DNA of 64,000 bases from Candidatus Adlerbacteria bacterium. GTDB lineage: Bacteria; Patescibacteriota; Minisyncoccia; Phycocordibacterales; SBAW01. Shown here piece after piece: positions 3,948-44,112 of the stretch. Positions within the stretch are counted from its first letter, which is position 1. Every line of letters begins with the position of its first letter. The notes under the pieces were generated by a model. It was not told where the DNA came from. It saw only the letters and a list, made by a program, of their open reading frames with translations, and did no database searches. Made by a program: the position numbers and the translations under genes. The DNA lies in assembly GCA_026397405.1 (NCBI GenBank), contig JAPLUW010000001.1, positions 171,138 to 235,137 of the forward strand. Direction: 5' to 3'.

Positions 3948-6900
3948 TTACTTCGAGATAGTGTTGCTGAAGCAGTCCTGACCAAGGCCTGAAGATGCAA
4001 AGCATCCGCCGAGACCGTAGCCGTTTGTCCAGTCATTATTGGTTGTTGGAGTCAACACTGTTGATGTTGATTCTGGTGACCAGATAATGTTGCTTGCCTG
4101 GAGAGTACCTGCTGTTGTCGTAGCCAAGCCATTGCCGTTTGAGACAATGAGTGGGAGAGACGTGTCAGCCTTGAGGAAGGTCGAGACTGAACCTGTCGTG
4201 TTTGTACCTGTAAGGGTAACGTTTGCACGGAGGTTGTAAGTCTTGGTTGTTCCTGCTGCCACAACCGCATCAGACGTGTTCGATGAGCTGTCGAAGTAAA
4301 CTACGAGGTTGTTACCTGCAGTTGTAGTCGCAAGCGTGGTCGAAGCGACGTTACCGTTAGGACCTGTGAAGGTCGGGCTGGTGATCGAAGCTGTCGATGT
4401 GTTGATTGTGAAGGTGAGCTTGTTGAGCGTTACGTCACCCTTTGAGTCCGCACCGACGGTGAGGATCAAGAGAGTTTGTGTACCGCTACCAGCCACAGCG
4501 CCTGTTGTGCTGTATGTGAAGGTTGGGAACGATTTGTAGATCGTTGCACCGTTCACTGCAGTCGTTGCGCTTGAAGGCTGACGATTCTGGCCAGATGCGA
4601 CACCAACACCGTAGGTACCGTTTGTACCAGAGACGTTAGAACCATCGTAGTTGACCTTTATAGTGTCACCTGAAGCTGTCAAAGGACCATTGGTGCTGAT
4701 AGCAGCAATGTCACCCTTGATAACGAGGACACGAGAACCGTTGACCGGGATGCGGAATGCACCCGATGCAATTTGTGACGAAGTTGCATTTGTTCCAGAC
4801 GGGAATACCGCTGTACCAACTTGCGTGTTCGTTGTCTGATCCCACAGAGTGACCTGGTTGTTTACGAGGTCAGTGCGAGTACCGCTCGAAAGCTTAAGAG
4901 CAACCTGGCGGAGGTCAATTGCCTCGTTGGTGCCAGAGAAGCGGATGTGGCCGAGGTCAACACCTGTTGAACCTGCAGATACAATGCCGAAGCTTGGAGT
5001 GCTTGAGTCAAGAGCAACTGTCATAGTACCGCCTGATGATGCCGTCATAAGATTGCCGGCATTTGCAGTAAAGGTACCGTTAACTGTTGAACCGCTCGTA
5101 ACACCTGATGCACCTGCAGTTTCAGTTCCGAGGAAGCCGAACTTGTAGGTACCAGTTACACCGCTGCGTACGTCGCAGTTAAGTGCAAGGGTGACTGTTG
5201 TTCCTTTCGGTACAACGATACCACCGCTGTTGAGCGAGAAGCTTGTGTCTGTACCTGAAGCCGGCACTGTTGCCGAAGACGGGTTGAAGACATGCTGGTC
5301 AGATACGCTGGTTGAACCAGAGTAGAGCTGGCAGTTTGTCAGGTCGTTTGCGCTACCACTCCATGTGTATTCAACAGGGAGAGTTGTGAGGCGCAAATCT
5401 TCGCCAGACGCAGTTGCATCAAGAATGATGTTTGCGAATGTGAATTGGTTTGAACCTGCAATAACTGTCTGTGCAATCGGAACTGATGAGACTGTTACGT
5501 TCAACGCTGCGGCCTTTACTGTCTGCGACGCGCTCGTCAAAGAGCTTGCCGGAGAGATAGTGAGGCTGCGGCCAGTTGTCTGGCCTGTAACGGTTGTCCA
5601 CTGAGTCGACGGAGTTGTCGAAGCCTGGATAGTGTCGTTAGTTACGAAGTTGGTGCCAAGTTTACCCTTCAAGAAGAGCTGAGTTGTTCCAACTGGGATA
5701 GTAACTGTGTCGGTGAAGGTTACGAGAGCGTCAGCTGTTGTGCCACCTGTTGTAGCGTCAACTGGGCCCGCAAGCACTGCGCCATTCTGATTCACGAGCG
5801 AAACGCTTGTGATGTCAGCGTAGGTAGCTGCTGAGCTGCCGGCAGTGATCTGGAAGATCATGCGTCCGACAGTTACCGGTTCACCCTGGTCCTGGACAGA
5901 GAAGCCGCCGAAGATCTGGTTCTGCTGGTTGATAGCAACGTTTCCAGAGGTAACTGCGTTCGAAGTCGAAACAGTTATGATACCTGCTGAAATTGTTGCT
6001 GTGAAGCCAGCGTAGTAAGGATCGTCAGATGATTTAACTGCACCGCAGTATGTACCTGCAGCAACACAAGCGTTTGTTGCGTTTGTGCCAGAGCCGAACG
6101 ACGGCAAGATGCCGTAGCCGTACTGTGCACCAACAACGTTGATGTCAGCTGCCTTCTGGATGTCGAAGACAACAGTTGTAGCAGAACCGTTTGCGATGTC
6201 ACCCTGGATTGCAACATCCTTAGAAAAGCCCTTCTGCATAAGAAGACCTGTTCCTGGGAATTGTGCAGTGTAGTAGTTGTCAGTTGAAACTGTTGTCGGA
6301 TACGACACGCCATCAACTGTAACTACAACATTTGAGAGGTATGACTGAGAAACTGAACCAGTCTGGTGGAAGCGGATTGACTTCACGTATGTGTCTTCCT
6401 GTGATCCTGCTGTAAGGCGGATCGAAGAGAATACATATGCAGTCTGACCTACGTTTTCAGTGTTTGCTGAACCCGGGTCATTTGTACCGCGTGAACCTGT
6501 GACAGTACCAATGAGAGTTGTTGTCTCGTTGATTGTGTCAGCTGCACCGCTGATAGGTAGGGAGCCGCTGTTGACTGCCGCGCTGGTGTTAACCGCAACG
6601 ACAGAGAAGCTTGCGACCTGACCTGCGTAGCCACTTGTAGTACCGCGGTTAGCCGCAACCGTGAAGGTCATCGACGTACCGTTAGGGATAACAACCGGAG
6701 CACCAACCACCGCCTGGTGATTGCTGTTCAAAGTCTTGCTGATGCCAATTTGGTTACCGTTTTGGTCGAGCAACATAACGCCGCTGAAAGCTGCGTCCTG
6801 TGCAATACCATCGCGCTGAACCGTAACGTTGTTAAGCGTTACATCGCCACCTGAAGCAGTGACTGTGAAGCGAGTAAACGGAATACGTGCCGCGTTGTTC

Positions 6901-8809: not shown

Positions 8810-11065
8810 ATGGCGCGTAAAAATAGCAAACAATCAGCAAAAGAAAGTGCGAACCCATTGCGCACACTCCCGGACGAAACAAAGCGCGCTATCATAGCTG
8901 TCTTCCTTGTGGTGGTTGGGATCATCTTTACGCTTGCCTACTTTGGTGCAGCGGGAAACGGAGGCTCAGACGTCTACAGACTTTTTAACTATCTCCTTGG
9001 TGTTGGCTACTTCCTCGTACCGGTACTTTTTTTTATCCTCGCATGGAGCGCATTGCGAGAGGAGTCTACTGGCTTCAACCCGTTCAAGTTGCTCGCGAGT
9101 GCTATTTTTATTTTTGCAGGACTTGGGTTTGTCGACATTGTGTCGGGAAGAGGCGGCCTTGTGGGAGACGCTATTGCGCACCCGGCGGTCAACTTTTTTG
9201 ACATCTACGCAGCACTTATTTTGCTCGGTGGGTTGTCACTTATTTCGCTTCTTATACTACTCGAAGGAAAAATCTCAACGGCGCCGTTTATTTTCCTCGG
9301 GCAGTCATTCGCAGCGCTGGGCAGAAAAATAATGGCGCTCATTTTTAAACCAAAAGAAGTAGGAGACCTTTCCATTGAAGAACTACCCGAAGGTGATGAA
9401 GAAGATGGACTCGCGCCCACCTACGCACGTGTCGATGAAGAAGAGGACGAACCTGCGCGCACGCCAACACCTGCCCGCGCTGCGATTGCCACAGGACCCT
9501 CAGCAAAAGACCTTCAAGCAAAAAGTGCCGCTGCCAATTTAAAGAGCTTGCTTGGGGAATATACTCCCCCACCGCTCTCACTATTGGAACGTGACAAAGG
9601 CCGCCCCGGTGTTGGCGACATCAAAGCAAATGCAAATATCATTAAACGTACACTTGCGAACTTTGGCATTGTTGTCGAACTCGACGAAATCTCTATAGGT
9701 CCGTCCGTTACCCGTTACGCTATTAAACCCGCCGAAGGCGTTCGCCTCCAAAAGATTCTCTCGCTTCAAACCAACTTGGAGCTTGCACTGGCCGCCCACC
9801 CGGTACGTATCGAGGCACCAATTCCGGGCAAGTCACTTGTGGGTATCGAAGTCCCGAACTCGGCAAAAGTTACCGTGGGGTTGGGTACCCTGCTTGAAGC
9901 AAAAGAGTTTGCCGATTCACCTAAGCCCCTCTTGGTAGCTCTTGGCCGCGACATTGTTGGCAACTCACATTTTGGCAACATCGCTAAAATGCCGCATATG
10001 CTTATTGCTGGCGCAACCGGGTCGGGTAAGTCGGTAACAATACACGCGATTATCACCTCGCTGCTCTACCGTGCCGGCCCCCAACAACTACGGTTTTTGA
10101 TGATAGACCCTAAGCGTGTCGAGTTGACGCTATACAACAAAATCCCCCATCTCCTGTCGCCTGTTATCACCGACCCTAAAAAAGCTATCATGGCACTCCG
10201 CTGGGCAGGACGGGAAATGGAAAGGCGTTACAACATTTTGGAAGAACACCGCGTCCGCGATATCGACTCCTACCATCAAAATGTGCTTACCCCTGCACTT
10301 GAACGCATTAGGAAAGAGGGCGAACCTGAAGAGGGCGAACCTGTGCCCGAAGCCATGCCCTACATTGTGGTTGTCATAGACGAACTTGCCGACATTATGC
10401 AAACCTTCCCCCGCGAGTTGGAGGCCGCTATTGTCCGCCTAGCACAGATGAGCCGTGCCGTTGGTATCCACTTGTTACTTTCAACCCAACGCCCCTCTGT
10501 AAACGTTATTACCGGCCTTATCAAAGCAAACGTCCCGTCACGTTTGGCTCTACAAGTTGCATCACAAATAGACTCCCGCACCATTTTGGACCAAGGCGGA
10601 GCCGAAAAACTGCTCGGCGCGGGCGACATGTTGTACTTGGGCGGCGACATGGGTAAACCGGTGCGCTTGCAGAGCGCATTTATAGGCGAGGGGGAGGTTA
10701 AAAAGGTGACCGACTTTATCGCAAAAAATAACGATGTAGAAATTCCTATCGACATCGCAGCCCCTGCCCCTGGCGTAACGAGCATTTCATTAAACGACAG
10801 CGGGGGCACTGGTGGTGGGTTAGACGAAGAAGTTGACGACGACATGTACGAGGCGGCACATGCAGCCGTGCTTGAAGCCGGTAAAGCGTCTACATCGTAT
10901 ATCCAGCGCAAACTCCGTGTCGGATACGCACGCGCAGCCCGCTTGGTCGACATGCTTGAAGAGCGCGGAGTTATAGGACCCGGCGACGGTGCAAAACCCC
11001 GCGAAGTGCTTGGCCGTGCCCCTGTAGCTGGCGGCGAGCCGCATGATATGAGCGAGGAGGTATGA
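8810..11065 (+). CDS. ftsK: DNA translocase FtsK/SpoIIIE
   Basis: 751 aa; N-terminal TM segments, Walker A LIAGATGSGKSV, C-terminal gamma wHTH (STSYIQRKLRVGYARAARLVDMLEERGVIGP). Confidence 0.9.
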   Translation: MARKNSKQSAKESANPLRTLPDETKRAIIAVFLVVVGIIFTLAYFGAAGNGGSDVYRLFNYLLGVGYFLVPVLFFILAWSALREESTGFNPFKLLASAIFIFAGLGFVDIVSGRGGLVGDAIAHPAVNFFDIYAALILLGGLSLISLLILLEGKISTAPFIFLGQSFAALGRKIMALIFKPKEVGDLSIEELPEGDEEDGLAPTYARVDEEEDEPARTPTPARAAIATGPSAKDLQAKSAAANLKSLLGEYTPPPLSLLERDKGRPGVGDIKANANIIKRTLANFGIVVELDEISIGPSVTRYAIKPAEGVRLQKILSLQTNLELALAAHPVRIEAPIPGKSLVGIEVPNSAKVTVGLGTLLEAKEFADSPKPLLVALGRDIVGNSHFGNIAKMPHMLIAGATGSGKSVTIHAIITSLLYRAGPQQLRFLMIDPKRVELTLYNKIPHLLSPVITDPKKAIMALRWAGREMERRYNILEEHRVRDIDSYHQNVLTPALERIRKEGEPEEGEPVPEAMPYIVVVIDELADIMQTFPRELEAAIVRLAQMSRAVGIHLLLSTQRPSVNVITGLIKANVPSRLALQVASQIDSRTILDQGGAEKLLGAGDMLYLGGDMGKPVRLQSAFIGEGEVKKVTDFIAKNNDVEIPIDIAAPAPGVTSISLNDSGGTGGGLDEEVDDDMYEAAHAAVLEAGKASTSYIQRKLRVGYARAARLVDMLEERGVIGPGDGAKPREVLGRAPVAGGEPHDMSEEV

Positions 11066-11433
11066 GCCCCGCCCCTTCTGCCAGGCGGACATTTGTTTTT
11101 TCCATAACGGTCGCGTGCGTCGTCCTGCTCGTAGGCTACGGTCTGTTTGAAGCTCGCAGGCTTATCGAAGGCCCGCGCATCGTACTAGTGTCGCCCAAGG
11201 ACGGCAGCGCGACCTCTTCCAGTGCTGTTATTATTTCAGGAACAGCGGAAAATATCTCGTTTTTGACCATAAACGACAAACCTGCGTTTACCGACGAGGA
11301 CGGCCATTTTACGCTCACATTGTCTCCGCCTGCAGGGTATACTGTATTTACCGCCCGCGGCGTGGACCGCTTTGGCCGACGCACGTCGCGGATAGTTTCA
11401 ATAAATGTGCTGAACTATTGCCCTCTTGCGTAA
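11062..11433 (+). CDS. Hypothetical membrane-anchored protein (4-nt overlap with ftsK)
   Basis: 123 aa; N-terminal TM helix FVFSITVACVVLLVGYGLF; translationally coupled to ftsK. Confidence 0.4.
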   Translation: MSPAPSARRTFVFSITVACVVLLVGYGLFEARRLIEGPRIVLVSPKDGSATSSSAVIISGTAENISFLTINDKPAFTDEDGHFTLTLSPPAGYTVFTARGVDRFGRRTSRIVSINVLNYCPLA

Positions 11434-11457
11434 CTTTATTCATTCACTTCCCCATCT

Positions 11458-12528
11458 ATGGCACCAAAAGCAAAAGAGAAAGAAAAAAAGACACCCGCAG
11501 AAGGAGGTCGCGACACCAGCGCCATTGATGCGGCAATACGTGAAATAAAAACTAAATTCGGCGAAGAGTCGATAATGAAGTTGGGCGAGACGGCAAAAGT
11601 AAACATCGACGCAATCCCCTCGGGCTCTATTGGCCTCGACTGGGCACTTGGCATTGGCGGGTACCCGCGTGGACGCATACTCGAAATTTTTGGCCCAGAA
11701 AGTTCCGGAAAGACTACTCTTACCCTGCACGCCATTGCTGAAGCGCAGAAAAAAGGCGGCATCTGCGCGTTTATAGACGCCGAACATGCGCTCGACCCGG
11801 AGTATGCAAAAAAAATCGGTGTAAAACTTGATGAGTTGCTTGTCTCGCAGCCAGACACAGGTGAGCAAGCGCTCGAGATTGTCGAAAGCCTTGTACGTTC
11901 AGGCAAAATCGACATTGTTGTTATCGACTCTGTTGCCGCACTTACACCAAAAGACGAAATCGAAGGAGACATGGGCGCGTTCCATGTGGGTAAACAGGCA
12001 CGCCTCATGAGCCAAGCGCTACGTAAGCTGACCGCCATTACCGCAAAGTCAAAAACGATTGTTATCTTTATTAACCAAATCCGTATGCAGATAGGCATGA
12101 TGTTTGGCAACCCAGAGACTACCCCGGGAGGTAAAGCATTAAAGTTTTATACATCGGTGCGTTTGGACATCCGCCGCATTGCGCAGATTAAAAAAGGCGA
12201 AGAAGTTGTCGGTGGCCGCCACCGCGTAAAAGTGGTTAAAAATAAAATTGCAGCACCGTTCCGCAAAGTGGAGTTCGATCTACTCTATAACGAAGGTATT
12301 TCCCGCGAGGGCGAGTTGTTGGCACTTGGCGAAAGTTTAGGAGTTGTCAGCAAAAGTGGCAGCTCGTACAGCTTTGGCGAAGAAAAGCTGGGCCGTGGCT
12401 ACGACGCGTCGCGAACCTTCCTGCGTGAAAACAAACCGATAGCGAATACCCTACTGAAACAGATCCGTACCGCGCTTGAAACAAACGCGCCTGCCAAAAG
12501 CGCAGGCGGTGGAGACTCGGACGAATAA
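11458..12528 (+). CDS. recA: Recombinase RecA
   Basis: 356 aa; [36 protein letters not shown] Walker A / L1-L2 region typical of RecA. Confidence 0.95.
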
Positions 12529-12531
12529 TAT

Positions 12532-12568
12532 AAAAAGAAAAACCTCCAGCGCCCGAAGGCACTGGAGG
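12532..12568 (-). terminator. Intrinsic terminator of high-GC cassette A (also serves recA on the other strand)
   Basis: Perfect hairpin cctccag-cgcccgaaggca-ctggagg (12543..12568) followed on the minus strand by T-tract (plus-strand aaaaagaaaaa 12532..12542). Confidence 0.6.
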
Positions 12569-12593
12569 TGATTGTGGCCATGAAGCCGAGAGA

Positions 12594-13025
12594 CTACTTG
12601 TCGGCCATCGCGCCCTTGTTGGCATAGGCCCGCTCGAGCATCGCTGCCAGGCCACGAGGAACCTTGGGCTCGGCGCCGTCGGTGACGTCGTAGGCCGCCG
12701 CGAAGTCGACGTAGGACTGGCGCTTCGCCTTGCTGAGCTGATCACGGCTGCTGTAGAGCGACAGATAGGCCGCGTCGACCTTGTGGAAGACACGCAACTT
12801 GTCATCGCCGATGGTCACGAGGCGCGTCTGCGCAGTGGCCAGGTCGGCATGGCCGTCGAGCAGGTGCGCGAACCGTTCCTTGCCGATCAGGCCCTTCTTG
12901 GCCATCAGCATGTCGATGGCAGCACAGATCGAGTCGGCGACGGAAACCGGTGGAAGGCTTTTCACGAGCCGATCTTCGTACGTCGCGCTCTTCTGCGGCT
13001 GACCAGTCATGGGCTTGTCGGTCAT
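12594..13025 (-). CDS. Hypothetical cytoplasmic protein encoded by compositionally foreign (high-GC, GC3-rich) cassette A
   Basis: 143 aa ORF MTDKPMTGQPQKSATYEDRLVKSLPPVSVADSICAAIDMLMAKKGLIGKERFAHLLDGHADL...; codon usage (GCC/CTC/GAG/CGC/ATC) unlike neighbours; RBS GGAAGGA upstream. Confidence 0.6.
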   Translation of the reverse strand: MTDKPMTGQPQKSATYEDRLVKSLPPVSVADSICAAIDMLMAKKGLIGKERFAHLLDGHADLATAQTRLVTIGDDKLRVFHKVDAAYLSLYSSRDQLSKAKRQSYVDFAAAYDVTDGAEPKVPRGLAAMLERAYANKGAMADK

Positions 13026-13044
13026 TTGTCTTCCTTCGTTGTGT

Positions 13045-13120
13045 GCGGGGACATCCCCGCGACTCGTTACGTCCGGATATGGACAAGAAGCAATATAAAT
13101 TACTAGTTAAAAGAAGTCAA
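13045..13120 (-). promoter_or_regulatory. Near-consensus sigma70-type promoter plus 5'-UTR palindrome driving cassette A
   Basis: Minus strand: -35 TTGACT (13120..13115), 17-nt spacer, -10 TATATT (13097..13092); 7-bp-armed palindrome GCGGGGA-ca-TCCCCGC at 13045..13060 between -10 and RBS. Confidence 0.45.
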
Positions 13121-13132
13121 GCCCCTACCCTT

Positions 13133-13462
13133 TTAGGCAGCAAAGGTGTTTTTTGGAGAATTTGCGCGCGACATATCAACACCCATAGCAACAAGTGCGC
13201 AGGCACCCACCAACAGTGCCAACTGGACTATAAGTTTGGTTCCAAGCACTGCAGAGATAATGAAAGCCTCAATACTCCCTACCCCACCGCTTGCAACGTT
13301 AGACAAGTTTGCAGCAACATGTGGCAGCGAGACAAAAAATACTGTCCCTACAAACGAAAGCACGAGCGCGTAACACTCCAGCGCAAAACGGCTTGTGAGC
13401 CTACGTGCGGTGTAGACAACCGCAACACTCGCCATTACCTGTTGTTCAATTTTACTCTTCAT
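13133..13462 (-). CDS. Small membrane protein, putative anti-sigma factor cognate to the upstream ECF sigma
   Basis: Start chosen at MKSKIEQQVMASVAVVYTARRL (ORF-track ORF 13133..13558 extends further); two predicted TM helices; position immediately downstream of ECF sigma gene. Confidence 0.4.
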   Translation of the reverse strand: MKSKIEQQVMASVAVVYTARRLTSRFALECYALVLSFVGTVFFVSLPHVAANLSNVASGGVGSIEAFIISAVLGTKLIVQLALLVGACALVAMGVDMSRANSPKNTFAA

Positions 13463-13475
13463 ATATATATACAAA

Positions 13476-14087
13476 CTATATCTTAGTGCTAATAGTTTCG
13501 TAGATCTTTTTAAACTCCTTTTTTGCACGATGGACGCGGGTTTTAATTGCCCCAACACTCACACCCTCTTCCCCCGCCATTTCTTCCTGCGACTTCCCTT
13601 CTATAAAAAAGGCATTCAATGCGCGGGCAAAAACTTCGGGCATGCGCGAGAGTACCGACGCCACCTCGTCCATAAATTCTTTTTTCTCAAATTGGCGGAG
13701 GTTTTTGTCGGGGATAAGTGCCCAGATTTCTTCATCTAACTCTACCTGTCTGCCACCCTGCTTTTTTTGTTTTTGGTAATGGGTCAGCGCAGTGTTTATA
13801 ACAATACGGTAGGCCCAGGACGAAAATGACGCGCCGTCTTGTTTTTTAAATTTCTGCGCGTTTATATAAATCTTGGTGAAGGCTTCTTGCACGACATCTT
13901 CTGCCTCTTCCTGTACGCGGACAATGTTCACCGCTTTGCGCATAAACGCTTCTTCGTACTTGCGCACAAGCAGTGCAAAAAGCGCGGGATGTGTGACAGA
14001 CGCAGCAAGTAACTCCTCGTCAGAGTAGTCTTTTCCCTCTTCTTCCAGCGAGAGATATCCTTCGTTCATGACTACACTGTATATCAT
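13476..14087 (-). CDS. ECF-type RNA polymerase sigma factor (sigma-70 family, group 4)
   Basis: 203 aa; region 2 (ALFALLVRKYEEAFMRKAVNIVRVQEEAEDVVQEAFTKIY) and region 4 HTH (GKSQEEMAGEEGVSVGAIKTRVHRAKKEF). Confidence 0.8.
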   Translation of the reverse strand: MIYSVVMNEGYLSLEEEGKDYSDEELLAASVTHPALFALLVRKYEEAFMRKAVNIVRVQEEAEDVVQEAFTKIYINAQKFKKQDGASFSSWAYRIVINTALTHYQKQKKQGGRQVELDEEIWALIPDKNLRQFEKKEFMDEVASVLSRMPEVFARALNAFFIEGKSQEEMAGEEGVSVGAIKTRVHRAKKEFKKIYETISTKI

Positions 14088-14170
14088 GGTGCCCTGTTTA
14101 CAACCACACAGAGCCCAAAAAGTTTCGCTCTAGAGCTCGACAAAGTGGCCTTTTTAAGTAGAATGCGTGG

Positions 14171-14746
14171 ATGGCAATGCTTGAATATAACGAGATTTTA
14201 AATAAAAAAGTAATTCTGCTCGACGGCGCTCCGTACGAAGTGTTGGACGCGCACGTCTTCCGCAAACAGCAGCGCAAGCCAGTTAACCAGACAAAACTCC
14301 GCCACCTTATTACCGGCAAAGTGACCGAACACGCCTTCCATGTATCGGAAAAAGCTGAAGAGGCCGACCTGTCTTTAAAGAGCGTAAAGTATCTCTACGC
14401 TGCAAAAGGCGAATACTGGTTCTGTGCCGAAAACAATCCCGCAGACCGCTTTACACTTTCGGCAGACACGGTTGGCACCGGTGCGCAATTTATGAAGACA
14501 AATTCTGTCATAGACGCGGTTGTCTTTGACGAGAAAATAATTTCTGTCCGTATCCCAATTAAAGTCGAACTTGTTGTGAAAGAAGCGCCACCCGCTGTGC
14601 GTGGCAACACATCACAAGGCGGCAACAAAATAATTACCCTCGAAACCGGCGCCACAGTAAACGCCCCTCTGTTTATAAACGAAGGAGATGTAGTGCTTAT
14701 AAACACCGAAGTTGGTAACTACGTCGAACGAGTCGATAAGAAATAA
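14171..14746 (+). CDS. efp: Translation elongation factor P
   Basis: 191 aa; three-domain EF-P pattern (LEYNEI..KPVNQTKLRHLITGKV..., KIITLETGATVNAPLFINEGDVVLINT). Confidence 0.9.
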   Translation: MAMLEYNEILNKKVILLDGAPYEVLDAHVFRKQQRKPVNQTKLRHLITGKVTEHAFHVSEKAEEADLSLKSVKYLYAAKGEYWFCAENNPADRFTLSADTVGTGAQFMKTNSVIDAVVFDEKIISVRIPIKVELVVKEAPPAVRGNTSQGGNKIITLETGATVNAPLFINEGDVVLINTEVGNYVERVDKK

Positions 14747-14750
14747 AAAA

Positions 14751-14773
14751 GCCCCCGACTCGGGGGCTTTTTT
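14751..14773 (+). terminator. Rho-independent terminator after efp
   Basis: gcccccg-act-cgggggc followed by TTTTTT. Confidence 0.7.
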
Positions 14774-14790
14774 ATTTTAATGCTGTGAAT

Positions 14791-14994
14791 TTAGCGAACA
14801 ATAAACGGCAGGAGTGCCATAAAGCGAGCGCGCTTAACAGCTTCGGCCAGGGCGCGCTGGTTTGCAGCCGAAAGGCCGGTGCGGCGGCGCGGCATAATTT
14901 TACCGTGCGGGTTTAAAAACTTCTTGAGCATCTCGACGTCTTTGTAGTCGATACGCTGGAAGTGCGCTACATAATTATCTGTTTTATTTGGCAT
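14791..14994 (-). CDS. rpsR: 30S ribosomal protein S18
   Basis: 67 aa; [54 protein letters not shown] is the S18 signature region. Confidence 0.9.
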
Positions 14995-15020
14995 AAAGGT
15001 TAGTTAATTGCTTGTGATGG

Positions 15021-15473
15021 CTAGAATGGGATGTCGTCTGGGTTAATGTCTTCCTGGGGGTAGTCTATCGCGTCGTCTTTAGGGGCTGGCTGCTCTTCTC
15101 CCCCACGGCTTGCACCTGCGCTTGTCGAAGGAGATCCTCCCCCTCCAGGCCCTGAGGTGCGCGAGCCGAACTGGACACGCTCGGCAACTACTTCTGTCCG
15201 GTACTGCTTACCTTTTTCTGGAGTCTCCCAGCTGCGGGTCTGCATACGGCCGTCGATAAGTGCTGAAGAACCTTTTTTCAAATACTGCGCCGACGTTTCT
15301 GCTTGGCGACCAAACACCACAACGTTGTGATACTCTGGCACGTCTTCCCACGTTTCGCCTTTTTTAACGCGGCGGTTTGTTGCAACACTAAACGTTGCAA
15401 CCTGCCCACCACTTGGGAGTGTTTTCAACTCCGGGTCGCGGGTCAAGTTTCCGTACAGAATGACTTTATTCAT
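15021..15473 (-). CDS. ssb: Single-stranded DNA-binding protein
   Basis: 150 aa; OB-fold N-terminus MNKVILYGNLTRDPELK, G/S-rich linker, acidic C-terminal tail ending DDIPF. Confidence 0.9.
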   Translation of the reverse strand: MNKVILYGNLTRDPELKTLPSGGQVATFSVATNRRVKKGETWEDVPEYHNVVVFGRQAETSAQYLKKGSSALIDGRMQTRSWETPEKGKQYRTEVVAERVQFGSRTSGPGGGGSPSTSAGASRGGEEQPAPKDDAIDYPQEDINPDDIPF

Positions 15474-15492
15474 ACACCTAGTATATCGCGTT

Positions 15493-16008
15493 TTACGACA
15501 CCAGCGCGTCCAGAGACTTGTCGATTTCCTCCTGCGAGATTTCTGCAGGTTTTTCTACTGGAGCGTCTTCAACAGGCTTTTTGATTGTCTCCCCTTCCAA
15601 ACGGTCAGAAGCAAAGACTGCGCGGCGTGGAGCTGCCTGAATGTCCTCGCGGACAGTTTCGATAACCAAGTAACGGAGAACATTTTTGTTTGCACGGAGT
15701 GCCTCCTGCAGTGCAGGAAGTGCCTCACGGCCAAGAGCAAATTTGATAAAACCAAAATATGCTTCTGTGCTCTTTTCGCGTTTACCTGTTTCCGAGCGGA
15801 CAATTGTGTACGCAAGGGTCATCTTCTGCGGGAACTCTTCACTAATAATTTCAGCGTCGCCAAGAGCTGACTTAATTTCGGCCACAACCGAAGCAACGCC
15901 ATCATCACCCACTGTTGGGGCAACATGAAAGCCGACCTCATATACGGGGCGGCTTTCGGAGACATTCGCTTGGGTTAAGACCTCGGCGGTCTGCGATTTT
16001 TCTACCAT
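15493..16008 (-). CDS. rpsF: 30S ribosomal protein S6 (with acidic C-terminal extension)
   Basis: Start placed at MVEKSQTAEV (ORF-track ORF 15493..16026 starts at an upstream Met); RPVYEVGFHVAPT matches S6 N-terminal core; rpsF-ssb-rpsR is the canonical order. Confidence 0.75.
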   Translation of the reverse strand: MVEKSQTAEVLTQANVSESRPVYEVGFHVAPTVGDDGVASVVAEIKSALGDAEIISEEFPQKMTLAYTIVRSETGKREKSTEAYFGFIKFALGREALPALQEALRANKNVLRYLVIETVREDIQAAPRRAVFASDRLEGETIKKPVEDAPVEKPAEISQEEIDKSLDALVS

Positions 16009-16040
16009 GCAAGGAGCGTACCACAAAGATGCAATTTTGC

Positions 16041-16080
16041 AACCAGAAAGCAGAAAGGCGAATCATTTGAGTGATTCGCC
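16041..16080 (-). terminator. Intrinsic terminator of high-GC cassette B
   Basis: Perfect 9-bp hairpin ggcgaatca-tttgag-tgattcgcc (16057..16080) followed on minus strand by T-rich run (plus aaccagaaagcagaaa). Confidence 0.55.
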
Positions 16081-16116
16081 TGGGCGTTTTAAGGAAACGC
16101 TCCTAAACCTTAACTT

Positions 16117-16347
16117 TTACCAGCCGAACTTGCGTTCGAACCAGTCGCTGGTGATCTCCCAGATCCAGGCCCCGAGAGCGAGGGGTCCCATAATGGCGAC
16201 CAGGACGGACACCGTCCGCAGCCACACATTACAGAAGATTGTGCTGCGCTGCATGCAATAGTCCTGCCAGTGGATCATACCGCCGAGGCCGAAGCCAAAG
16301 GCAATCATACCGACAAGGCCGATGACGAGAAACAAAATCGCGCGCAT
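16117..16347 (-). CDS. Small two-TM membrane protein encoded by high-GC cassette B
   Basis: 76 aa MRAILFLVIGLVGMIAFGFGLGGMIHWQDYCMQRSTIFCNVWLRTVSVLVAIMGPLALGAWIWEITSDWFERKFGW; GC visibly higher than neighbours; RBS GGAGAA. Confidence 0.5.
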   Translation of the reverse strand: MRAILFLVIGLVGMIAFGFGLGGMIHWQDYCMQRSTIFCNVWLRTVSVLVAIMGPLALGAWIWEITSDWFERKFGW

Positions 16348-16369
16348 AACATTTCTCCGTGTTGGCGAT

Positions 16370-16454
16370 ACTAGGCGGAATTGCCTAGTGTCGCAGGGAA
16401 ATCAACGTACGTGAACTCTGTATATATCATACTACTATCTTTATATTTTGTCAA
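16370..16454 (-). promoter_or_regulatory. Near-consensus sigma70-type promoter plus 5'-UTR palindrome driving cassette B
   Basis: Minus strand: -35 TTGACA (16454..16449), 17-nt spacer, -10 TATGAT (16431..16426); palindrome ACTAGGC-ggaatt-GCCTAGT at 16370..16389 in the 5' UTR. Confidence 0.45.
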
Positions 16455-16517
16455 GGGGTACAAAACCCCGCAAAATAATGCTATTTTGGGCACCTATGCG
16501 GCCTTTTGTTTAAAACC

Positions 16518-17969
16518 TTAGTGGATTGGAGTCGAATAACCCATCTCTTCTTCCAGCTCTATCCCCGCCTCTTCGAGTGGTTTATGCATCGTTTTGCGTA
16601 ATGGGAGTTCGGGTAGGAACAATACGAGGAAAAACGCTGGCACGACAACTGCCGCGGCAATTAAAAACGTTGTTGGGAGTGCCGCGCTTAGTGCCATACC
16701 GCTTGCGAGCCGCGCGTTTACGAGGCCGCCAAAAAACGCTCCTCCAACCGACGCACCAATACTGCGGAACAGCTGCACCGACGCAGTCACCACGCCAAGT
16801 TTTTCCTGCCCAAAGGCGTTTTGCACCACGATGTTAAACACCGGCAGTGTGATACCAAGCCCCGCGCCCATAAATATCATCTTCAAAATTATTTCCATTT
16901 TTGTGCTGTCGGCACCCATGCGTGAAAACAAAAACAGACCCACAGCAACCATCACCACCCCGCACACGACCAGCACTTTGTATTTGCCCGTGCGCGAAAC
17001 AATCTGCCCCGACAGGGCGCTCATGACAACAATACCAAGCATCAGCGGCGTCAAAATAAGCCCCGCGTGCGTTGCGCTAAAGCCGGCCACTTGCTGGGCA
17101 AAGAGCGGCAAGTAAATAATCGAGCCAAACATTCCAATAGCGGTTAAAAACACCGAAGATACAGAGATTGAAAATGCACGGTTACGGAACAACGACAGCG
17201 GCAACACTGGGTCTTGTGCGCGTTCTTCCACAAAGATAAATGCAACAAACGCCGCGAGTGCTGCGGCAAACAGGCACTGTATCGTGAAGGAACCCCACGC
17301 GTACGTGCTGCCGCCCCACACAAGTGCCAACAAAAAAGGCACAAGTGTCGCACCAATTAAAAACGCACCGAGGAAGTCTATCGGATACTTTTTTTGCACA
17401 TGCTTAATGCGCGGCAGCGTTAGTGCAATGACCGCAAGCGCCAAAAGCCCGAGCGGGATGTTGATATAAAATATCCAACGCCACGAGTACGAGTCGGTTA
17501 TCCATCCGCCAAGGAGAGGCCCTGCAACGGAGGCAATACCAAACATGCCGCCGAGCAGGCCCATCCACTTGCCGCGCTCGGCCGGCGGGAAAAGGTCACC
17601 TACAATGGCAAACGAGTTGACCATAATCGCCCCGCCGCCAATACCCTGTATTGCGCGGAACGCGATCAACGCAAACATCGACGTTGCCATACCCGAAAGT
17701 ACGGAACCGACGAGGAAGATAACGATGCCAAAGATATAAAAAATGCGACGGCCGTAAATGTCGGAGAGTTTGCCGTACAGCGGCACGGTTACGGTCGAGG
17801 CCAGCATGTATGCGGTAAAGACCCACGACAAATGTTCCATGCCGTGCAGGTCGGCAACAATACGCGGCAGTGCAGTTGAGACAATAGTTTGGTCGAGGGC
17901 TGAAAGCAGCATGGCAAGCATCGCCCCGCACATAGCGGCGACTTTTGGGTTGCGTAAAAATGTTGGCAT
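16518..17969 (-). CDS. MFS transporter, DHA2 (EmrB/QacA-like 14-TMS drug:H+ antiporter) family
   Basis: Start placed at [21 protein letters not shown]; [10 protein letters not shown]...[28 protein letters not shown] motifs; ORF-track ORF extends to 18056. Confidence 0.8.
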
Positions 17970-18011
17970 CGCAGTAGTATACCAAATTGGCCTTTTTACT
18001 GCCTGTTTGGG

Positions 18012-18050
18012 CAAAAAGATACCCCGAGTGTTGGAGATACTCGGGGTATC
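18012..18050 (-). terminator. Strong intrinsic terminator of high-GC cassette C
   Basis: Perfect 12-bp hairpin gataccccgagt-gttggagat-actcggggtatc (18018..18050) followed on minus strand by TTTTT. Confidence 0.65.
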
Positions 18051-18068
18051 TTCCAACGCTCGGGGCGT

Positions 18069-18605
18069 TTACTTCTGCTTGTCGATCGGCCGGCAGGTCT
18101 CGTCGCCGGTGCCGGCGTGCATCTTGGTCTGGCCCGCCGGGCACACAGCCGGCGGCTTGGCGTCGGCTGTCTTGCCGACGCGCTTGGTGTCGAGTTCGAA
18201 CTGCTCGGCCATCTTGCTGAGCTTCTCGACACCGAAGCGCTTCCGGGCCTCGATAGCTCCCATCAGGAGCTTGAGGTCCGACTCGAGCAGCTCCCTGGTC
18301 GAATAGAACTTGTCCGCCCCGAGCAGGCCGAAGTGGAACTGGTCCAGCTTGGTGCCGTTGGTCTCGTTGGTAGGACAGACCTCCGACTTCACACGCAGCG
18401 ACTTGACCGTGTCCGGCCGGCCGAATACGTCCTTCGTCCAGTCGAGCACGGTCAGCTTGTGCTCGGTATAGGGGTCGCAGTCGGCAGCGAATGCCGGCGA
18501 CACGTCGACCATCGCCAGAAAGGCGATGGTCGCGAAGACGAGCCGGAGCGGCCTGCCCTCGAGATACTCCCGGACGCGCCCGATGGCGCCAATGAAGGTG
18601 TTCAT
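18069..18605 (-). CDS. Secreted Cys-containing hypothetical protein encoded by high-GC cassette C
   Basis: 178 aa; signal peptide ...LRLVFATIAFLAMVDVSPAFAADCDP; five Cys; approx 64% GC with GC3-rich codons, unlike flanking tatD and MFS genes. Confidence 0.6.
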   Translation of the reverse strand: MNTFIGAIGRVREYLEGRPLRLVFATIAFLAMVDVSPAFAADCDPYTEHKLTVLDWTKDVFGRPDTVKSLRVKSEVCPTNETNGTKLDQFHFGLLGADKFYSTRELLESDLKLLMGAIEARKRFGVEKLSKMAEQFELDTKRVGKTADAKPPAVCPAGQTKMHAGTGDETCRPIDKQK

Positions 18606-18633
18606 CTTTTTCTCTCCACATGTTGCAACGCGT

Positions 18634-18705
18634 AGGGCCGAAATAGCCCTTTAAACCGTTGATACTACCTCTACTATTATAGCACCCTTTGGTGCTACTT
18701 GTCAA
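18634..18705 (-). promoter_or_regulatory. Consensus sigma70 promoter (overlapping 3' end of tatD) with spacer palindrome and 5'-UTR hairpin driving cassette C
   Basis: Minus strand: -35 TTGACA (18705..18700, inside last codons of tatD), 18-nt spacer containing palindrome GCACC-aaag-GGTGC (18695..18682), -10 TATAAT (18681..18676); hairpin AGGGC-n7-GCCCT in UTR (18650..18634); RBS GGAGAG. Confidence 0.5.
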
Positions 18706-19543
18706 GTCTAAAAATACGCTTAGAATTAAGGATTATTTGGGCGGCCATCGCCTCTTCAGTAATACCTTTTATACCTGCCATGGCCTTTACCACTTCCTGC
18801 ACATGCATGGGTTCGTTGCGTTGGCCGCGAAATGGCACCGGCGTAATGTAGGGCGCATCGGTTTCTGTCAGCAACATGTCGAGCGGCGTATTTTTTACCA
18901 CCTCGTCGTAGTCATGGGTAAACGTAAGCACCCCGGTAAACGAAAGTGTAAAACCTAAATTTAAAAACTGTTGCGCAATGTCCCAGTTCCCTGCAAAAAA
19001 GTGCACGTCGCCCTGTACTTTGGCGTGTGTTTTTAAAATCTCGAGCGCGTCTTTGTATGCGTTTGCATCACTCCCGCTTTGGTGGGCTCCGTCGCGGATA
19101 TGCAGCATCAGTGGTTTACCCAACTTGTTTGCAAGTTCGATATGCTGCACAAAAACTTCCCTCTGGAGTTGTTTGGTGTCTTCTTCTAGCCGGTAATAAT
19201 CCAACCCGCATTCCCCTATCGCAATCACTCTGTCTGACTTTCCTAATTCTTCGTACGCAGCAAAATCAAATTTCTCACCTCTTGATGTAAATGCTTTCCC
19301 CTCCCCTCCCAATTCTTTTTCATCGTGGTACGACTTTGCTGTATGTACCGGGTGCAGCGCTACACTTGCATAGACGTCGCCCATTTCTTTTTCTGCACAT
19401 TCTACTGCTGCACGCGAAGTGTCCAACTGGGTTCCAACCAAGTTCATCCCAACTTCTGCTTCGCGAGCACGCACAAACACCTCGTCCCGGTCTGCGTCGT
19501 ATGCAGCAAACTGCACGTGCGTATGTGCATCAAAATATTTCAC
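18695..19543 (-). CDS. tatD: TatD-family metal-dependent DNase/hydrolase
   Basis: Probable GTG start (VKYFDAHTHVQF...); HxH, GECGLDY, LHIRDA and ETDAPY motifs of TatD family. Confidence 0.8.
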   Translation of the reverse strand: MKYFDAHTHVQFAAYDADRDEVFVRAREAEVGMNLVGTQLDTSRAAVECAEKEMGDVYASVALHPVHTAKSYHDEKELGGEGKAFTSRGEKFDFAAYEELGKSDRVIAIGECGLDYYRLEEDTKQLQREVFVQHIELANKLGKPLMLHIRDGAHQSGSDANAYKDALEILKTHAKVQGDVHFFAGNWDIAQQFLNLGFTLSFTGVLTFTHDYDEVVKNTPLDMLLTETDAPYITPVPFRGQRNEPMHVQEVVKAMAGIKGITEEAMAAQIILNSKRIFRLDK

Positions 19544-19544
19544 A

Positions 19545-20987
19545 CTAGTCTTTACGCGCAAACAGGTTCTCCGGTTTTTTGTTTGCCACAACTGCGGCTT
19601 TTATTTTTTCTGACGTCTCAGGCATAAACGGGTTTAACATGCGGGCAATAGAATAAAGTTCTTGTGTTAGGTCGAAGATAATTTTCTTTGCTTGTTCGGG
19701 CTCTGTTTTTATAAGTTTAAACGGCTCGGTTTCTGTAATAGTGCGGTCGAGTGCTTGTACTTTTGTAAACACAAAGTCGAGCGCTTTGTGTACTTCAAAA
19801 CTCTCAAGCGCGTGCGTGTATTCTTCCTCAAACCCGGCAGGCTCCGGCCGTGTTCCTACATCTAAATGTTTTTCCGCCAATGTCATAATACGGGCCGAAA
19901 GGTTCCCTAGCCCGTTTGCCAAATTGGCATTATAAATTTCTTTAAAACTCTCTCGTGTTATGTCGCCGTCTTCAAACGGTGTTATGTGGCGCGCCAAAAA
20001 ATACCGCACCGCTTCACCGCCATACTCTTCTATAAGTTCTTCCGGGTCGATAATATTACCGAGCGTTTTGGACATCTTTTTACCACCTGACGTGATAAAC
20101 CCGTGTACAAGCAACGACTTTGGCAGCGGCACCCCGGCCGAAAGTAACATCCCCGGCCAGATTGCCGCATGGAAGCGCAAAATATCTTTGCCTATAACAT
20201 GCACGTTTGCAGGCCAAAATTCTTTGTACAACACTTCATCCTGTCCGTAGCCTAGGGCTGTTACGTAGTTGGCAAGCGCGTCGCACCACACGTACATTAC
20301 CTGGCTGTCATCGCCCGGCACGGGTATACCCAAACCTTGCGGCCACGCGGCTTTGCGCGGGCGCGAAAAACTTACATCTTCAAGGCCTTCGTTTTGTATA
20401 AACGAAAGGATCTCATGTTTGCGGCTTTCCGGCACAATACGAAACTCGTCCGTTTCTATTTTCTCTTGTATCTGTGGAGCATATTTTGAAAGACGGAAGA
20501 AGTAATTTTCCTCTTTAATGAATTCGGGCACCGTGCCGTGGTCGGGGCATTTTCCGTCAACCAAATCTTTTTCAGTAATAAATGCTTCGTGGCCCACACA
20601 GTACAGACCTTCATATGCTTTTTTATAGATGTCCCCCGCAGCAACAAGTTTCTGCCACAATGCTTGGGCGCCTGGCCAATGTTTTTTCTGGTCAGTGGTG
20701 CGGATAAATTGGTCATATGAAATGTCGAGGCCTTTGTAGAGCGAGGCAAAATTTTCGACAATACCGTCCAAAAATACCAATGGTTCTTTCCCCTCTTTTA
20801 CTGCCGAGTCCACCATTTTTTGTGTATTCTCGTCCGAGCCGGTTAAAAAATATACGTGGTCACCTACTAGGCGATGGTAGCGGGCAATAATGTCGGAGAG
20901 CGTTGTTGTATATGCATGGCCCAAATGCAATTTTGCGTTCGGGTAAAAAATTGGTGTGGTTATATAAAACGGTTTCTTTTCGGACAT
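19545..20987 (-). CDS. metG: Methionyl-tRNA synthetase (short form)
   Basis: 480 aa; class I HIGH (PIFYPNAKLHLGHAYT) and KMSKS (KMSKTLGN) motifs. Confidence 0.9.
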   Translation of the reverse strand: MSEKKPFYITTPIFYPNAKLHLGHAYTTTLSDIIARYHRLVGDHVYFLTGSDENTQKMVDSAVKEGKEPLVFLDGIVENFASLYKGLDISYDQFIRTTDQKKHWPGAQALWQKLVAAGDIYKKAYEGLYCVGHEAFITEKDLVDGKCPDHGTVPEFIKEENYFFRLSKYAPQIQEKIETDEFRIVPESRKHEILSFIQNEGLEDVSFSRPRKAAWPQGLGIPVPGDDSQVMYVWCDALANYVTALGYGQDEVLYKEFWPANVHVIGKDILRFHAAIWPGMLLSAGVPLPKSLLVHGFITSGGKKMSKTLGNIIDPEELIEEYGGEAVRYFLARHITPFEDGDITRESFKEIYNANLANGLGNLSARIMTLAEKHLDVGTRPEPAGFEEEYTHALESFEVHKALDFVFTKVQALDRTITETEPFKLIKTEPEQAKKIIFDLTQELYSIARMLNPFMPETSEKIKAAVVANKKPENLFARKD

Positions 20988-20996
20988 GTATTAAAA

Positions 20997-22073
20997 CTAC
21001 TTTGCTGCGCCGTTGTCTGCAAGGCCTTGTTTTGCAAGCGCCCGCTTTTTTTCGCGGTCGATGTCGGCGACATATTCCTGTATTGCGCCAGCAATTGGGA
21101 CCGAAAGTAACACACCCAAAAATCCCACTAGTTTAAAGCCAATGAGTAATGAGAGGATAACCAGCAGCGGCGGTACGCCCACCACTTTTTTAACAACCAC
21201 GGGATAAATTAAATGTGCCTCAAACTGCTGCACAATGGTGTAGAGGCCTGCAATAAGAAGCGCTTCTGTGACACCGCCCGTAGTAAAGCCAATTGCAATT
21301 GCAGGTATCATCGCCAAAATTTGGCCGAACACAGGAATAAGCTCAAACACAGCCGCAAGCAGGGCGAGCAGCAGCGCATGTTGTACACCCAAAATTAGGA
21401 GCCCTAAGTAGAGCAGCACGCCGACAATAACCGCGAGTATAAGCTGCCCTTGCATCCACTTCCCTATTTTTTCTTGCGAGCGGCGCCACAAGTTTAAGAC
21501 ATAGGCCTGCTCTTTTATCGGGGTGATAACGCGCAAAAAGTCGTCGACACCAGTTTCCTGCACTGAAAAATAAAACGAAAACACAACTATCAAAATAAAT
21601 GACGTAACCCCGCCAAAGAAAGCGGACAGTGCATTGAACGCGCCACCTGTTGAGTCTTGGAGCGAGATAGAAAGGTTTTGCAACACATTTGCCGAGGAAA
21701 GTGTGTCGCTGACGTTACCCCACGGAAGCAGGCCGTGCGTCGCATCGGAAATATTTAAATTAGAAAGTGTCGTCGGGAGCTGTGTCAGGAAATTTGCCGC
21801 GTCGCTCAAAATCGGCGGGATAAAGAAAAAGAGTACACCAAAAAATGTACCTATCACCACAAGGTAAATGGTGAGTACCGACAGCAGACGCGGGAACTTA
21901 CGCTTCATCAGGCCGTGTACACCTGGCTCTATAGCCGAGGCAATAACAACAGCTGCAAGCACAATAAGCACTATGTCGCGCAAAAACCACAACAAGGCTA
22001 CAAGCGTCAGAAAAAGAATCGTTTTTATGATGCTTCCCGACGTGATGTGGACGTTTATATCACGGTCTGCCAT
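20997..22073 (-). CDS. AI-2E family (PerM/UPF0118) transporter
   Basis: Start placed at MADRDINV; eight predicted TMS with characteristic large first loop. Confidence 0.7.
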   Translation of the reverse strand: MADRDINVHITSGSIIKTILFLTLVALLWFLRDIVLIVLAAVVIASAIEPGVHGLMKRKFPRLLSVLTIYLVVIGTFFGVLFFFIPPILSDAANFLTQLPTTLSNLNISDATHGLLPWGNVSDTLSSANVLQNLSISLQDSTGGAFNALSAFFGGVTSFILIVVFSFYFSVQETGVDDFLRVITPIKEQAYVLNLWRRSQEKIGKWMQGQLILAVIVGVLLYLGLLILGVQHALLLALLAAVFELIPVFGQILAMIPAIAIGFTTGGVTEALLIAGLYTIVQQFEAHLIYPVVVKKVVGVPPLLVILSLLIGFKLVGFLGVLLSVPIAGAIQEYVADIDREKKRALAKQGLADNGAAK

Positions 22074-22091
22074 AGGCCAAATATAGCACAA

Positions 22092-23498: not shown

Positions 23499-23504
23499 AG
23501 AAAA

Positions 23505-25451: not shown

Positions 25452-25470
25452 TCCAGAAGTATACAATACC

Positions 25471-26052
25471 CTACAGTCCGCTTGCCCCGAGAGACTCATT
25501 AATAACGCGTATAAGCGCCGGACGGAGCGCCCGCGCTTCTGTAGTTACCGTAGGAGAAAATTCATTGTTTGCAACAAACGGCATACTTATTTCAGTCTGT
25601 TCCAAATATCCCAAATGCGAAAGCACGCGCAGTACAAGTACGCATTCTGCATTCTCAATCTCTGCCTCATCCAAACCCCCTGCCATATACGCAAACCCTC
25701 CACGCACAGTTGTATACAATTCTGGCACTGGCTCTTCCCCGTTAATAAGCCGCAGAAGCAAACGTGCAACACGACCCGATGCCCGACGCTGTAAAAGTGT
25801 CTGTCCAAAATACGCACGCGACAACTGCTCGACACCGGTTAACTTCCATTCATAGCGACCACGCAGCATGGCAAACCTACCCTGCGTCAGGGGCTCCAGC
25901 CCGTAGCGCAACTTCGAATGTTCAACACGGGCCGAACGAGCCGACGCACGCACCAGCCCCACATCTTTCGTTAGGAGAAAGATACTCGTATTGGCCTCAC
26001 CAATACCACGCTTCCCAAGCACTATGCCGTCTGTTGCGACAATGGTATGCAT
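25471..26052 (-). CDS. recO: DNA repair protein RecO (short form)
   Basis: 193 aa; N-terminal OB-fold region DGIVLGKRGIGEANTSIFLLTKDVGLV...GRFAMLRGRYEWKLTGVEQL typical of RecO. Confidence 0.7.
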   Translation of the reverse strand: MHTIVATDGIVLGKRGIGEANTSIFLLTKDVGLVRASARSARVEHSKLRYGLEPLTQGRFAMLRGRYEWKLTGVEQLSRAYFGQTLLQRRASGRVARLLLRLINGEEPVPELYTTVRGGFAYMAGGLDEAEIENAECVLVLRVLSHLGYLEQTEISMPFVANNEFSPTVTTEARALRPALIRVINESLGASGL

Positions 26053-26053
26053 C

Positions 26054-44106: not shown

Positions 44107-44112
44107 ATAAAT

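Follow-up and report, generated by a model that had tools for sequence, protein, structure and literature searches.

What does it mean when a single small gene departs sharply in base composition from the genes on either side of it? The question is raised by a locus in a 64,000-nucleotide stretch of the metagenome-assembled genome of a Candidatus Adlerbacteria bacterium, one of the Patescibacteria (GenBank assembly GCA_026397405.1, contig JAPLUW010000001.1, positions 171,138 to 235,137 of the forward strand; hereafter the window, to which unmarked coordinates refer). Here an open reading frame for a 143-aa protein (ORF A), with a promoter, leader and terminator of its own, lies between recA and the genes for a small membrane protein and an extracytoplasmic function (ECF) sigma factor. 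An earlier note on the sequence took this unit, here called cassette A, together with two similar loci of the window, as repeated acquisition of foreign, self-contained expression units from a high-GC donor. The explanation that we favour, with moderate confidence, is a different one: cassette A would be an old, dispensable and hypervariable orphan cassette, of single origin at its slot, with a stable and gene-specific richness in G+C at third codon positions (GC3). Atypical GC content is routinely taken as a sign of recent horizontal transfer; this shortcut would mislead here, because the anomaly persists in positional homologues throughout the clade and tracks hypervariability.

The gene of cassette A and its slot beside recA

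ORF A and the genes that delimit its slot are the following.

12594..13025, minus strand: ORF A, 143 aa, NCBI locus tag NT019_00885, GC3 0.84
11458..12528, plus strand: recA, the convergent flank of the slot
13133..13462, minus strand: small membrane protein, putative anti-sigma factor; the upstream, co-oriented flank of the slot
13476..14087, minus strand: ECF-type sigma factor (Pfam Sigma70_r2, Sigma70_r4_2 and Sigma70_ECF)

The anti-sigma label is putative and comes from position only, the 13133..13462 product having no match in Pfam or NCBIfam.

That ORF A is far more G+C-rich than its neighbours, as first noticed by eye, is borne out by its composition. Its GC3 of 0.84 lies about 3.6 standard deviations (sd) from the mean of the window's genes (0.483, sd 0.10, n = 66 plausible genes), with an overall GC of 0.634 and values of 0.64, 0.42 and 0.84 at the first, second and third codon positions (GC1, GC2 and GC3). 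Third positions are A, T, C and G at frequencies of 0.03, 0.12, 0.47 and 0.37, and codon use is the reverse of the host preference, with AAG favoured 12:1 over AAA, GCC and GCG over GCA, and TTC and ATC over TTT and ATT.

The frame is a real protein-coding gene. Codon periodicity is seen in GC1, GC2 and GC3, the antisense ORFs have shadow-frame composition, and comparison with the orthologue in a related genome (L001; loci of relatives are numbered in this way) gave nonsynonymous and synonymous divergences (dN and dS) of 0.20 and 0.49, with dN/dS 0.41. A chimeric assembly had been flagged as a point to check; in Logan assemblies from two sequencing runs, the stretches 12358..16025 and 9594..16025 of the window recur at 99.98–100% identity, and both junctions of cassette A are reproduced in these independent assemblies. 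De novo origin from GC-rich non-coding DNA was rejected, the GC excess being limited to third positions.

The product is all-alpha and lacks a signal peptide. An AlphaFold (AF2) model, built from only four sequences, comprises seven helices with a predicted local distance difference test (pLDDT) score of about 90 over residues 30–110. In agreement with the initial impression that the protein belongs to no recognisable family, scans of Pfam, PHROGs, PADLOC and NCBIfam gave no matches, whether for this product or for those of the two similar cassettes, and a sequence profile run against the PDB matched a single de novo designed protein (E 8.4). No family, defence-system or structural match points to a specific function. 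Our reading is that protein A probably acts in the cytoplasm as a helical binding protein, in an interaction with phage or host that changes rapidly.

The slot was surveyed in 27 species-representative genomes and 53 metagenome contigs, with a hidden Markov model search of all ORFs in those loci. Wherever the context of a homologue is readable, the gene lies between the small membrane protein gene, itself after the ECF sigma gene, and the convergent recA. Homologues of ORF A (family A) occur in the surveyed loci only within this slot, in eight distinct genomes: the window, L001, L007, L010, L012, L033 (= L037), L036 and L038. All eight carriers fall in a subclade whose membrane protein is 61–72% identical to that of the window. 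Seven other related genomes thus keep the gene at this position, at similar or higher GC3 and behind a homologous promoter and leader, a result that goes against the reading as a recent import.

Larger collections added little. ORF A found only two relatives, at 72–73% identity, among 5.8 billion proteins, and one remote member came from searching 1.8 billion cluster representatives with a profile; repeating the 5.8-billion-protein search with a profile yielded nothing further, and an alignment of three close members found no family A in IMG/VR or the JGI metagenomes. No homologue was found in any of these sets outside Adlerbacteria-type genomes of the Candidate Phyla Radiation (CPR). Family A is thus a new, unannotated and clade-restricted all-alpha family of about 125–170 aa with one fixed slot.

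Occupancy of the slot varies. The closest relative, L004/L008 (RecA 98% and sigma factor 98% identical), has no cassette A, and only 3 bp lie there between the stop codons of the anti-sigma gene and recA. Many deeper relatives have a vacant slot as well, with a gap of −41 to about 80 bp, and some carry, instead of family A, a 373-aa gene, toxin-antitoxin pairs or a diversity-generating retroelement (DGR). From sequence resemblance, we take the 373-aa gene to be CFA-synthase-like and the pairs to be presumably of the RelE/ParE-like kind.

Two further slot occupants may be related to family A. A second single-gene cassette at 2200–2830 of L001 encodes 146 aa with GC3 0.74 (background 0.63), has its own TTGACC-N17-TATAGT promoter and terminator, and may be a diverged tandem paralogue, its similarity to family A being weak (E 0.2–0.95). 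In L009, a long-read metagenome-assembled genome (MAG), a GC3-rich ORF in the slot (4336–4858) is split over two frames; because it shares an LNGSY motif with L012, it is probably a frameshifted or mis-assembled family-A relative.

Across family A the GC3 excess persists. The GC3 values of the eight members, each with its local background, are 0.84/0.51, 0.92/0.63, 0.65/0.42, 0.87/0.62, 0.97/0.59, 0.89/0.48, 0.93/0.42 and 0.93/0.47. Other slot cargo has GC3 at or below background, with the exception of two DGR target genes (0.91 and 0.83). GC3 outliers are scarce in the roughly 425 kb of related loci, and nearly all are small unannotated ORFs, namely family A, cassette B in two genomes, cassette C, a DGR target and two ORFs of L033. 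Because the excess is long-standing in family A and is shared with orphan genes but not with other slot cargo, it is not the fading mark of a recent import.

A rough amelioration estimate, based on the uncorrected rate of change between G/C and A/T (S↔W) at 4-fold sites of host genes, predicts that even a starting GC3 of 1.0 would have fallen to about 0.81–0.86 since the window and L001 split. Five of the eight members lie above this ceiling for passive decay. Between the window and L001, ORF A shows 12 S↔W differences against 21.4 predicted by the host process (p = 0.009). Taken together with cassette B, treated below, the pairwise evidence for active maintenance of GC3 is mixed, and persistence across the family is the stronger argument. 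Translational selection was provisionally rejected as the cause, the genes for S6, S18, EF-P and SSB having GC3 values of only 0.48–0.59. No relevant paper came up in a literature search on GC3-rich genes of CPR bacteria or of Adlerbacteria.

Expression signals and divergence of the reading frame

The expression signals of cassette A, in order of transcription, are the following.

13115..13120, minus strand: −35 hexamer TTGACT, found by promoter scan; homologous to TTGAC[T/A/G] in seven other family-A loci
13092..13097, minus strand: −10 hexamer TATATT, after a 17-nt spacer; aligns with TGTATnnT in relatives
13026..13085, minus strand: 5′ leader of about 60 nt, with a 5′-proximal GUCC/GGAC hairpin (RNAfold) and a block homologous to the motif AGGGAWGTWC
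13045..13060, minus strand: palindrome GCGGGGA-tg-TCCCCGC; as RNA, a 6-bp stem with a 4-nt loop
about 13030..13037, minus strand: Shine-Dalgarno-like GAAGGAAG, 4–5 nt ahead of the ATG; aligns with ACGAGGAA in relatives
12532..12569, minus strand: intrinsic terminator; UUCG loop on a 12-bp stem, then the T-tract TTTTTCTTTTT

The leader is counted from an inferred transcription start. The near-consensus promoter, the palindrome with 7-bp arms and the hairpin terminator with its T-tract had all been described in the earlier note and are present; a ribosome-binding site had been noted as well, but its string is GAAGGAAG and not GGAAGGA. In the stretch from 8 to 27 kb of the window, the promoter is among the three best minus-strand matches, the other two belonging to cassettes B and C, and the terminator is the best match of its kind; it begins 14 nt past the recA stop codon and has an A-tract on the recA side. 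On these signals, and with an ORF under purifying selection between promoter, Shine-Dalgarno site and terminator, cassette A is a separate predicted transcription unit of sigma70 type.

Promoter and leader are homologous in all eight family-A genomes, which have TTGAC[T/A/G], a 17–18-nt spacer, TGTATnnT, the AGGGAWGTWC block and ACGAGGAA ahead of the start codon. Perfect GC-rich palindromes with 7-nt arms occur at four places in the window, where about 1.2 are expected. That the palindrome of the leader could be a regulatory hairpin, as already suggested, gains from its recurrence in orthologous leaders: a G4-loop-C4 hairpin stands at the equivalent place in five genomes (the window, L001, L033, L036 and L038), with differing loops. 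Because relatives keep the G4 and C4 arms at spacings of anything from 2 to 5 nt, the hairpin more likely acts as an RNA element, affecting stability or translation, than as an operator. RNAalifold, applied to the eight leaders, gave a weak consensus of −5 kcal/mol that did not include the G4/C4 hairpin, and Rfam had no match in the leaders.

In seven genomes a long hairpin, CGCCCCTTGAC...GTCCCWAGGGGCG, encloses the −35 and −10 hexamers and has a T-run behind it; within it, CGCCCCTTGAC overlaps the −35 and is paired with a conserved motif, GTCCCWAGGGGCGTTTTTT. The sites are L001 1585–1645, L010 4350–4403, L011 4345–4396, L012 4345–4395, L033 4345–4395, L036 470–512 and L038 1470–1512. In form, this hairpin resembles a terminator and would close the sigma operon. 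A 19-nt deletion has removed its 3′ arm from the window copy.

Within this conserved shell the reading frame is hypervariable. Family-A proteins are 21–49% identical to one another (72% for the window and L001), as against 86–97% for RecA, and their identity shows no correlation with that of host markers (Spearman 0.02 and 0.30). Protein A diverges far faster than the sigma factor or the membrane protein. The pattern can be followed along the DNA of L033 and L036, where the flanks are 80–97% identical and the promoter and leader core mostly 60–88%, the ORF and 3′ untranslated region fall to 30–60% (mean about 45%), and identity returns to 93% at the recA stop codon. Between the window and L001, dS for ORF A is 0.49 against 1.2–1.8.

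As a side observation, the identity of window 9113–26617 to L004 is mosaic, with blocks at 97–100% and at 80–88% and others near 50% (22400–23470, the prolyl-tRNA synthetase gene, and 19600–19900). This points to frequent recombination with diverged relatives.

Cassettes B and C and the competing explanations

The two similar loci of the window are cassettes B and C.

18010..18715, minus strand: cassette B, with a 12/12 promoter (18705..18676), a structured leader and a terminator (18016..18052)
18069..18605, minus strand: cassette B ORF, 178 aa, signal-peptide-like N-terminus, GC3 0.90
about 16030..16520, minus strand: cassette C, with an 11/12 promoter (16454..16426), a leader hairpin and a terminator (16081..16056)
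16117..16347, minus strand: cassette C ORF, a membrane protein of 76 aa with two transmembrane segments, GC3 0.80 (0.73 stop-to-stop)

Both loci have the like architecture claimed for them, with the qualification that only their ORFs are GC-rich: in A, B and C alike, promoters, leaders and terminators are host-like in composition. The units were thus not imported whole from a GC-rich donor. Their products are unrelated to one another. No flanking direct repeats were found at the cassettes, and no repeats common to the three; the ORFs beside them include no obvious integrase- or transposase-like gene, although they were not systematically scanned against Pfam.

The promoter of cassette B has an extended −10. 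The cassette is kept in L004 (7900–8600), where its product is 51% identical with dN 0.42 and dS 0.61; dN in adjacent genes between the window and L004 is 0.03–0.06, with comparable dS. From the −10 to the ribosome-binding site, only about 2 of 70 nt differ between the two genomes, and because this leader is far better conserved than the synonymous sites of neighbouring genes, it is probably a functional RNA or regulatory site. Cassette C separates the gene for a major facilitator superfamily (MFS) transporter from rpsF; in L004, which has no cassette C, the two are about 45 bp apart.

In the explanation we favour, the whole unit of cassette A (promoter, leader with the AGGGAWGTWC block and G4/C4 hairpin, Shine-Dalgarno site, ORF and terminator) would have originated once at the slot. 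It would be dispensable, the closest relative L004 having lost it. The diversity of the ORF would stem from allele exchange by homologous recombination through the flanks, from very fast evolution under diversifying or relaxed selection, or from both. A gene-specific pressure would uphold the GC3, with selection on mRNA or translation and GC-biased fixation tied to frequent allele exchange as candidates, and the GC3-rich style would be common to other small, fast-evolving orphan genes (B, C and the DGR targets). As far as could be found, a conserved expression shell around a hypervariable ORF with a lasting GC3 excess is an undescribed combination.

Several points weigh against this explanation. 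In cassette B, the window and L004 differ by 12 S↔W changes at 4-fold sites, 13.3 being expected under the host-like process, with no sign of maintenance on that timescale. The low dS of ORF A between the window and L001 could reflect later lateral exchange rather than constraint. The eight leaders give no covariation support for the leader hairpin, and a fold search with protein A returned only generic helical-repeat matches. Finally, an ancient import from an unsampled GC-rich source would also be compatible with the data.

Another explanation would make gene A the third component of the ECF sigma and membrane protein module, as a regulator or sigma-dependent effector, read through from the operon. 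We think this unlikely. Although gene A lies directly downstream and co-oriented in all eight carriers, most sigma and membrane-protein loci of the wider clade, including that of the closest relative, have no gene A, the slot being vacant or otherwise filled in dozens of them, and protein A does not keep pace with the module, its divergence being far the faster. In its favour, a terminator-like hairpin of the upstream operon encloses the promoter in seven relatives, and the loss of its 3′ arm in the window would permit read-through; the promoter, however, is sigma70-like and not ECF-like.

Somewhat less probable still is that a high-GC donor recently passed on a ready-made expression unit by horizontal transfer, three times in the window. 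Of the original proposal, the self-contained, atypical and accessory nature of cassette A (the last from its absence in L004) stands, and the import origin is largely unsupported. GC3 values of 0.80–0.90 against 0.48, with codon choices usual for genomes of about 65% GC, would suit such a donor, but older orthologues are as high in GC3 or higher, no donor homologue appeared in any collection searched, all homologues belonging to related Adlerbacteria, and the regulatory parts are host-like. The absence of A and C from L004 and the mutual unrelatedness of the three products also fit separate arrivals; against this, B is orthologous in L004 with a dS similar to that of its neighbours, and family A holds the same slot, with homologous promoter and leader, in eight genomes. 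The lack of flanking or shared repeats and of an obvious integrase or transposase beside the cassettes, as judged without a systematic Pfam scan or a tRNA search, likewise speaks against import.

A slot that acts as a recombination hotspot, where GC-biased gene conversion raises regional GC whatever gene is present, is an improbable explanation. The slot is indeed highly variable among relatives and the identity between the window and L004 is mosaic, but recombinant blocks elsewhere, such as that of the prolyl-tRNA synthetase at 22400–23470, have ordinary GC3. The order GC3 >> GC1 > GC2 would fit a fixation bias acting on a coding gene; the excess, however, ends at the ORF boundaries, and the CFA-synthase-like gene, the toxin-antitoxin pairs and the reverse transcriptase (RT) and Avd genes of the DGR occupy the same slot at background GC3 or lower.

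An artefact (chimeric assembly, contaminant insert or accidental ORF in a non-coding GC-rich stretch), which the sharp compositional step at the ORF might suggest, is scarcely credible in view of two independent assemblies identical across both junctions, orthologues in MAGs of other studies, the codon periodicity, the dN/dS of 0.41, the confident AF2 core and the shadow-frame composition of the antisense ORFs.

Known systems, a possible wider class and other loci

Among known kinds of variable genes, strain-variable ORFans in hypervariable islets are the closest to cassette A: one small gene of unassigned function at a fixed core-gene junction, which some close relatives have and others do not, with alleles much more divergent than the flanks and no mobility genes. 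ORFan islets are usually AT-rich, however, whereas the GC3 of cassette A is strongly and persistently above that of the genome; moreover, the promoter, leader and terminator shell of A is conserved around a hypervariable ORF, and at least two nearby cassettes have the same style.

Compositionally atypical genes acquired horizontally reportedly follow the amelioration model of Lawrence and Ochman. Cassette A resembles such genes in its outlier GC3 and codon usage and in its accessory distribution, and differs from them in that older positional orthologues show no decay, no donor was found and only the ORF is atypical. Integron gene cassettes are likewise compact one-ORF units, strain-variable at a fixed place, but they consist of a promoterless ORF with a shared attC, whereas A, B and C each have their own strong promoter and ordinary terminator at three separate sites; no attC-like element common to the three was found. 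With RecX and other small RecA-adjacent regulators, protein A shares its small size, all-helical nature and position beside recA. Its gene, however, is convergent with recA rather than operonic and is missing from many relatives, and RecX, a three-repeat helical fold (PF02631), was not found for protein A in Pfam or among the PDB sequence or fold matches.

DGR target genes, like cassette A, encode hypervariable small proteins, and in L030/L083 and L027 they are GC3-rich and lie in the same slot; in family A, however, variation spans the whole ORF and is not confined to a C-terminal variable region. The DGR of L030 (= L083) occupies 4473–6865 of that locus, with a target gene of GC3 0.91 and, at ordinary GC3, a gene for an Avd-like four-helix bundle and an RT gene. 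Its variable region (VR; 4848–4958) matches the template region (TR; 5304–5414) at 87%, all mismatches falling at TR adenines. L027 5671–8131 carries a similar set of RT and Avd genes with a putative GC3-rich target (0.83). In the window, tblastn with the L083 RT and L030 Avd found nothing, no TR/VR pair was found, and no repeat involves ORF A; as a positive control, the DGR search recovered the TR/VR pair of L030.

It is possible, and we put it forward only tentatively, that Adlerbacteria, and perhaps other CPR bacteria, possess a class of small hypervariable genes (A, B, C and the DGR targets) with conserved shells of promoter, leader and terminator and with ORFs whose divergence among close relatives approaches randomness, in which a gene-specific process holds GC3 at 0.8–0.97. 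Localised GC-biased conversion is one candidate for this process, as are targeted mutagenesis linked to the turnover of alleles and selection for mRNAs poor in A and U. On that view, a high GC3 would signal diversification in progress and not foreign origin. Should the pattern prove general, GC3-rich mini-cassettes would make fast-evolving interaction genes of uncultured CPR bacteria easy to spot in sequence; these genes could act against phages or on host bacteria, and the cassettes would lend themselves naturally to testing for gene-specific GC-biased fixation in bacteria. Should it not, a false call of horizontal transfer has been removed, and a new orphan family and a variable slot beside recA have been defined.

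Some minor observations complete the picture. In L033, two small GC3-rich ORFs lie outside the slot (605–895 and 2921–3265; GC3 0.76 and 0.84 against 0.47), one of them with a signal-peptide-like N-terminus. A more conventional candidate for recent transfer in the window is a low-GC island at 43237–47893 (GC 0.35–0.38, GC3 0.30–0.36), which encodes two DNA methyltransferases (D12-class N6-adenine and N6_N4_Mtase) and a protein with a NucS-like nuclease domain, and is probably a restriction-modification island. Between efp and rpsR, an 18-bp perfect palindrome at 14741–14777, flanked by A- and T-tracts, forms a bidirectional terminator; weak sub-threshold Rfam 'leader peptide' matches at 14.7 kb are due to this EF-P/S18 terminator palindrome.

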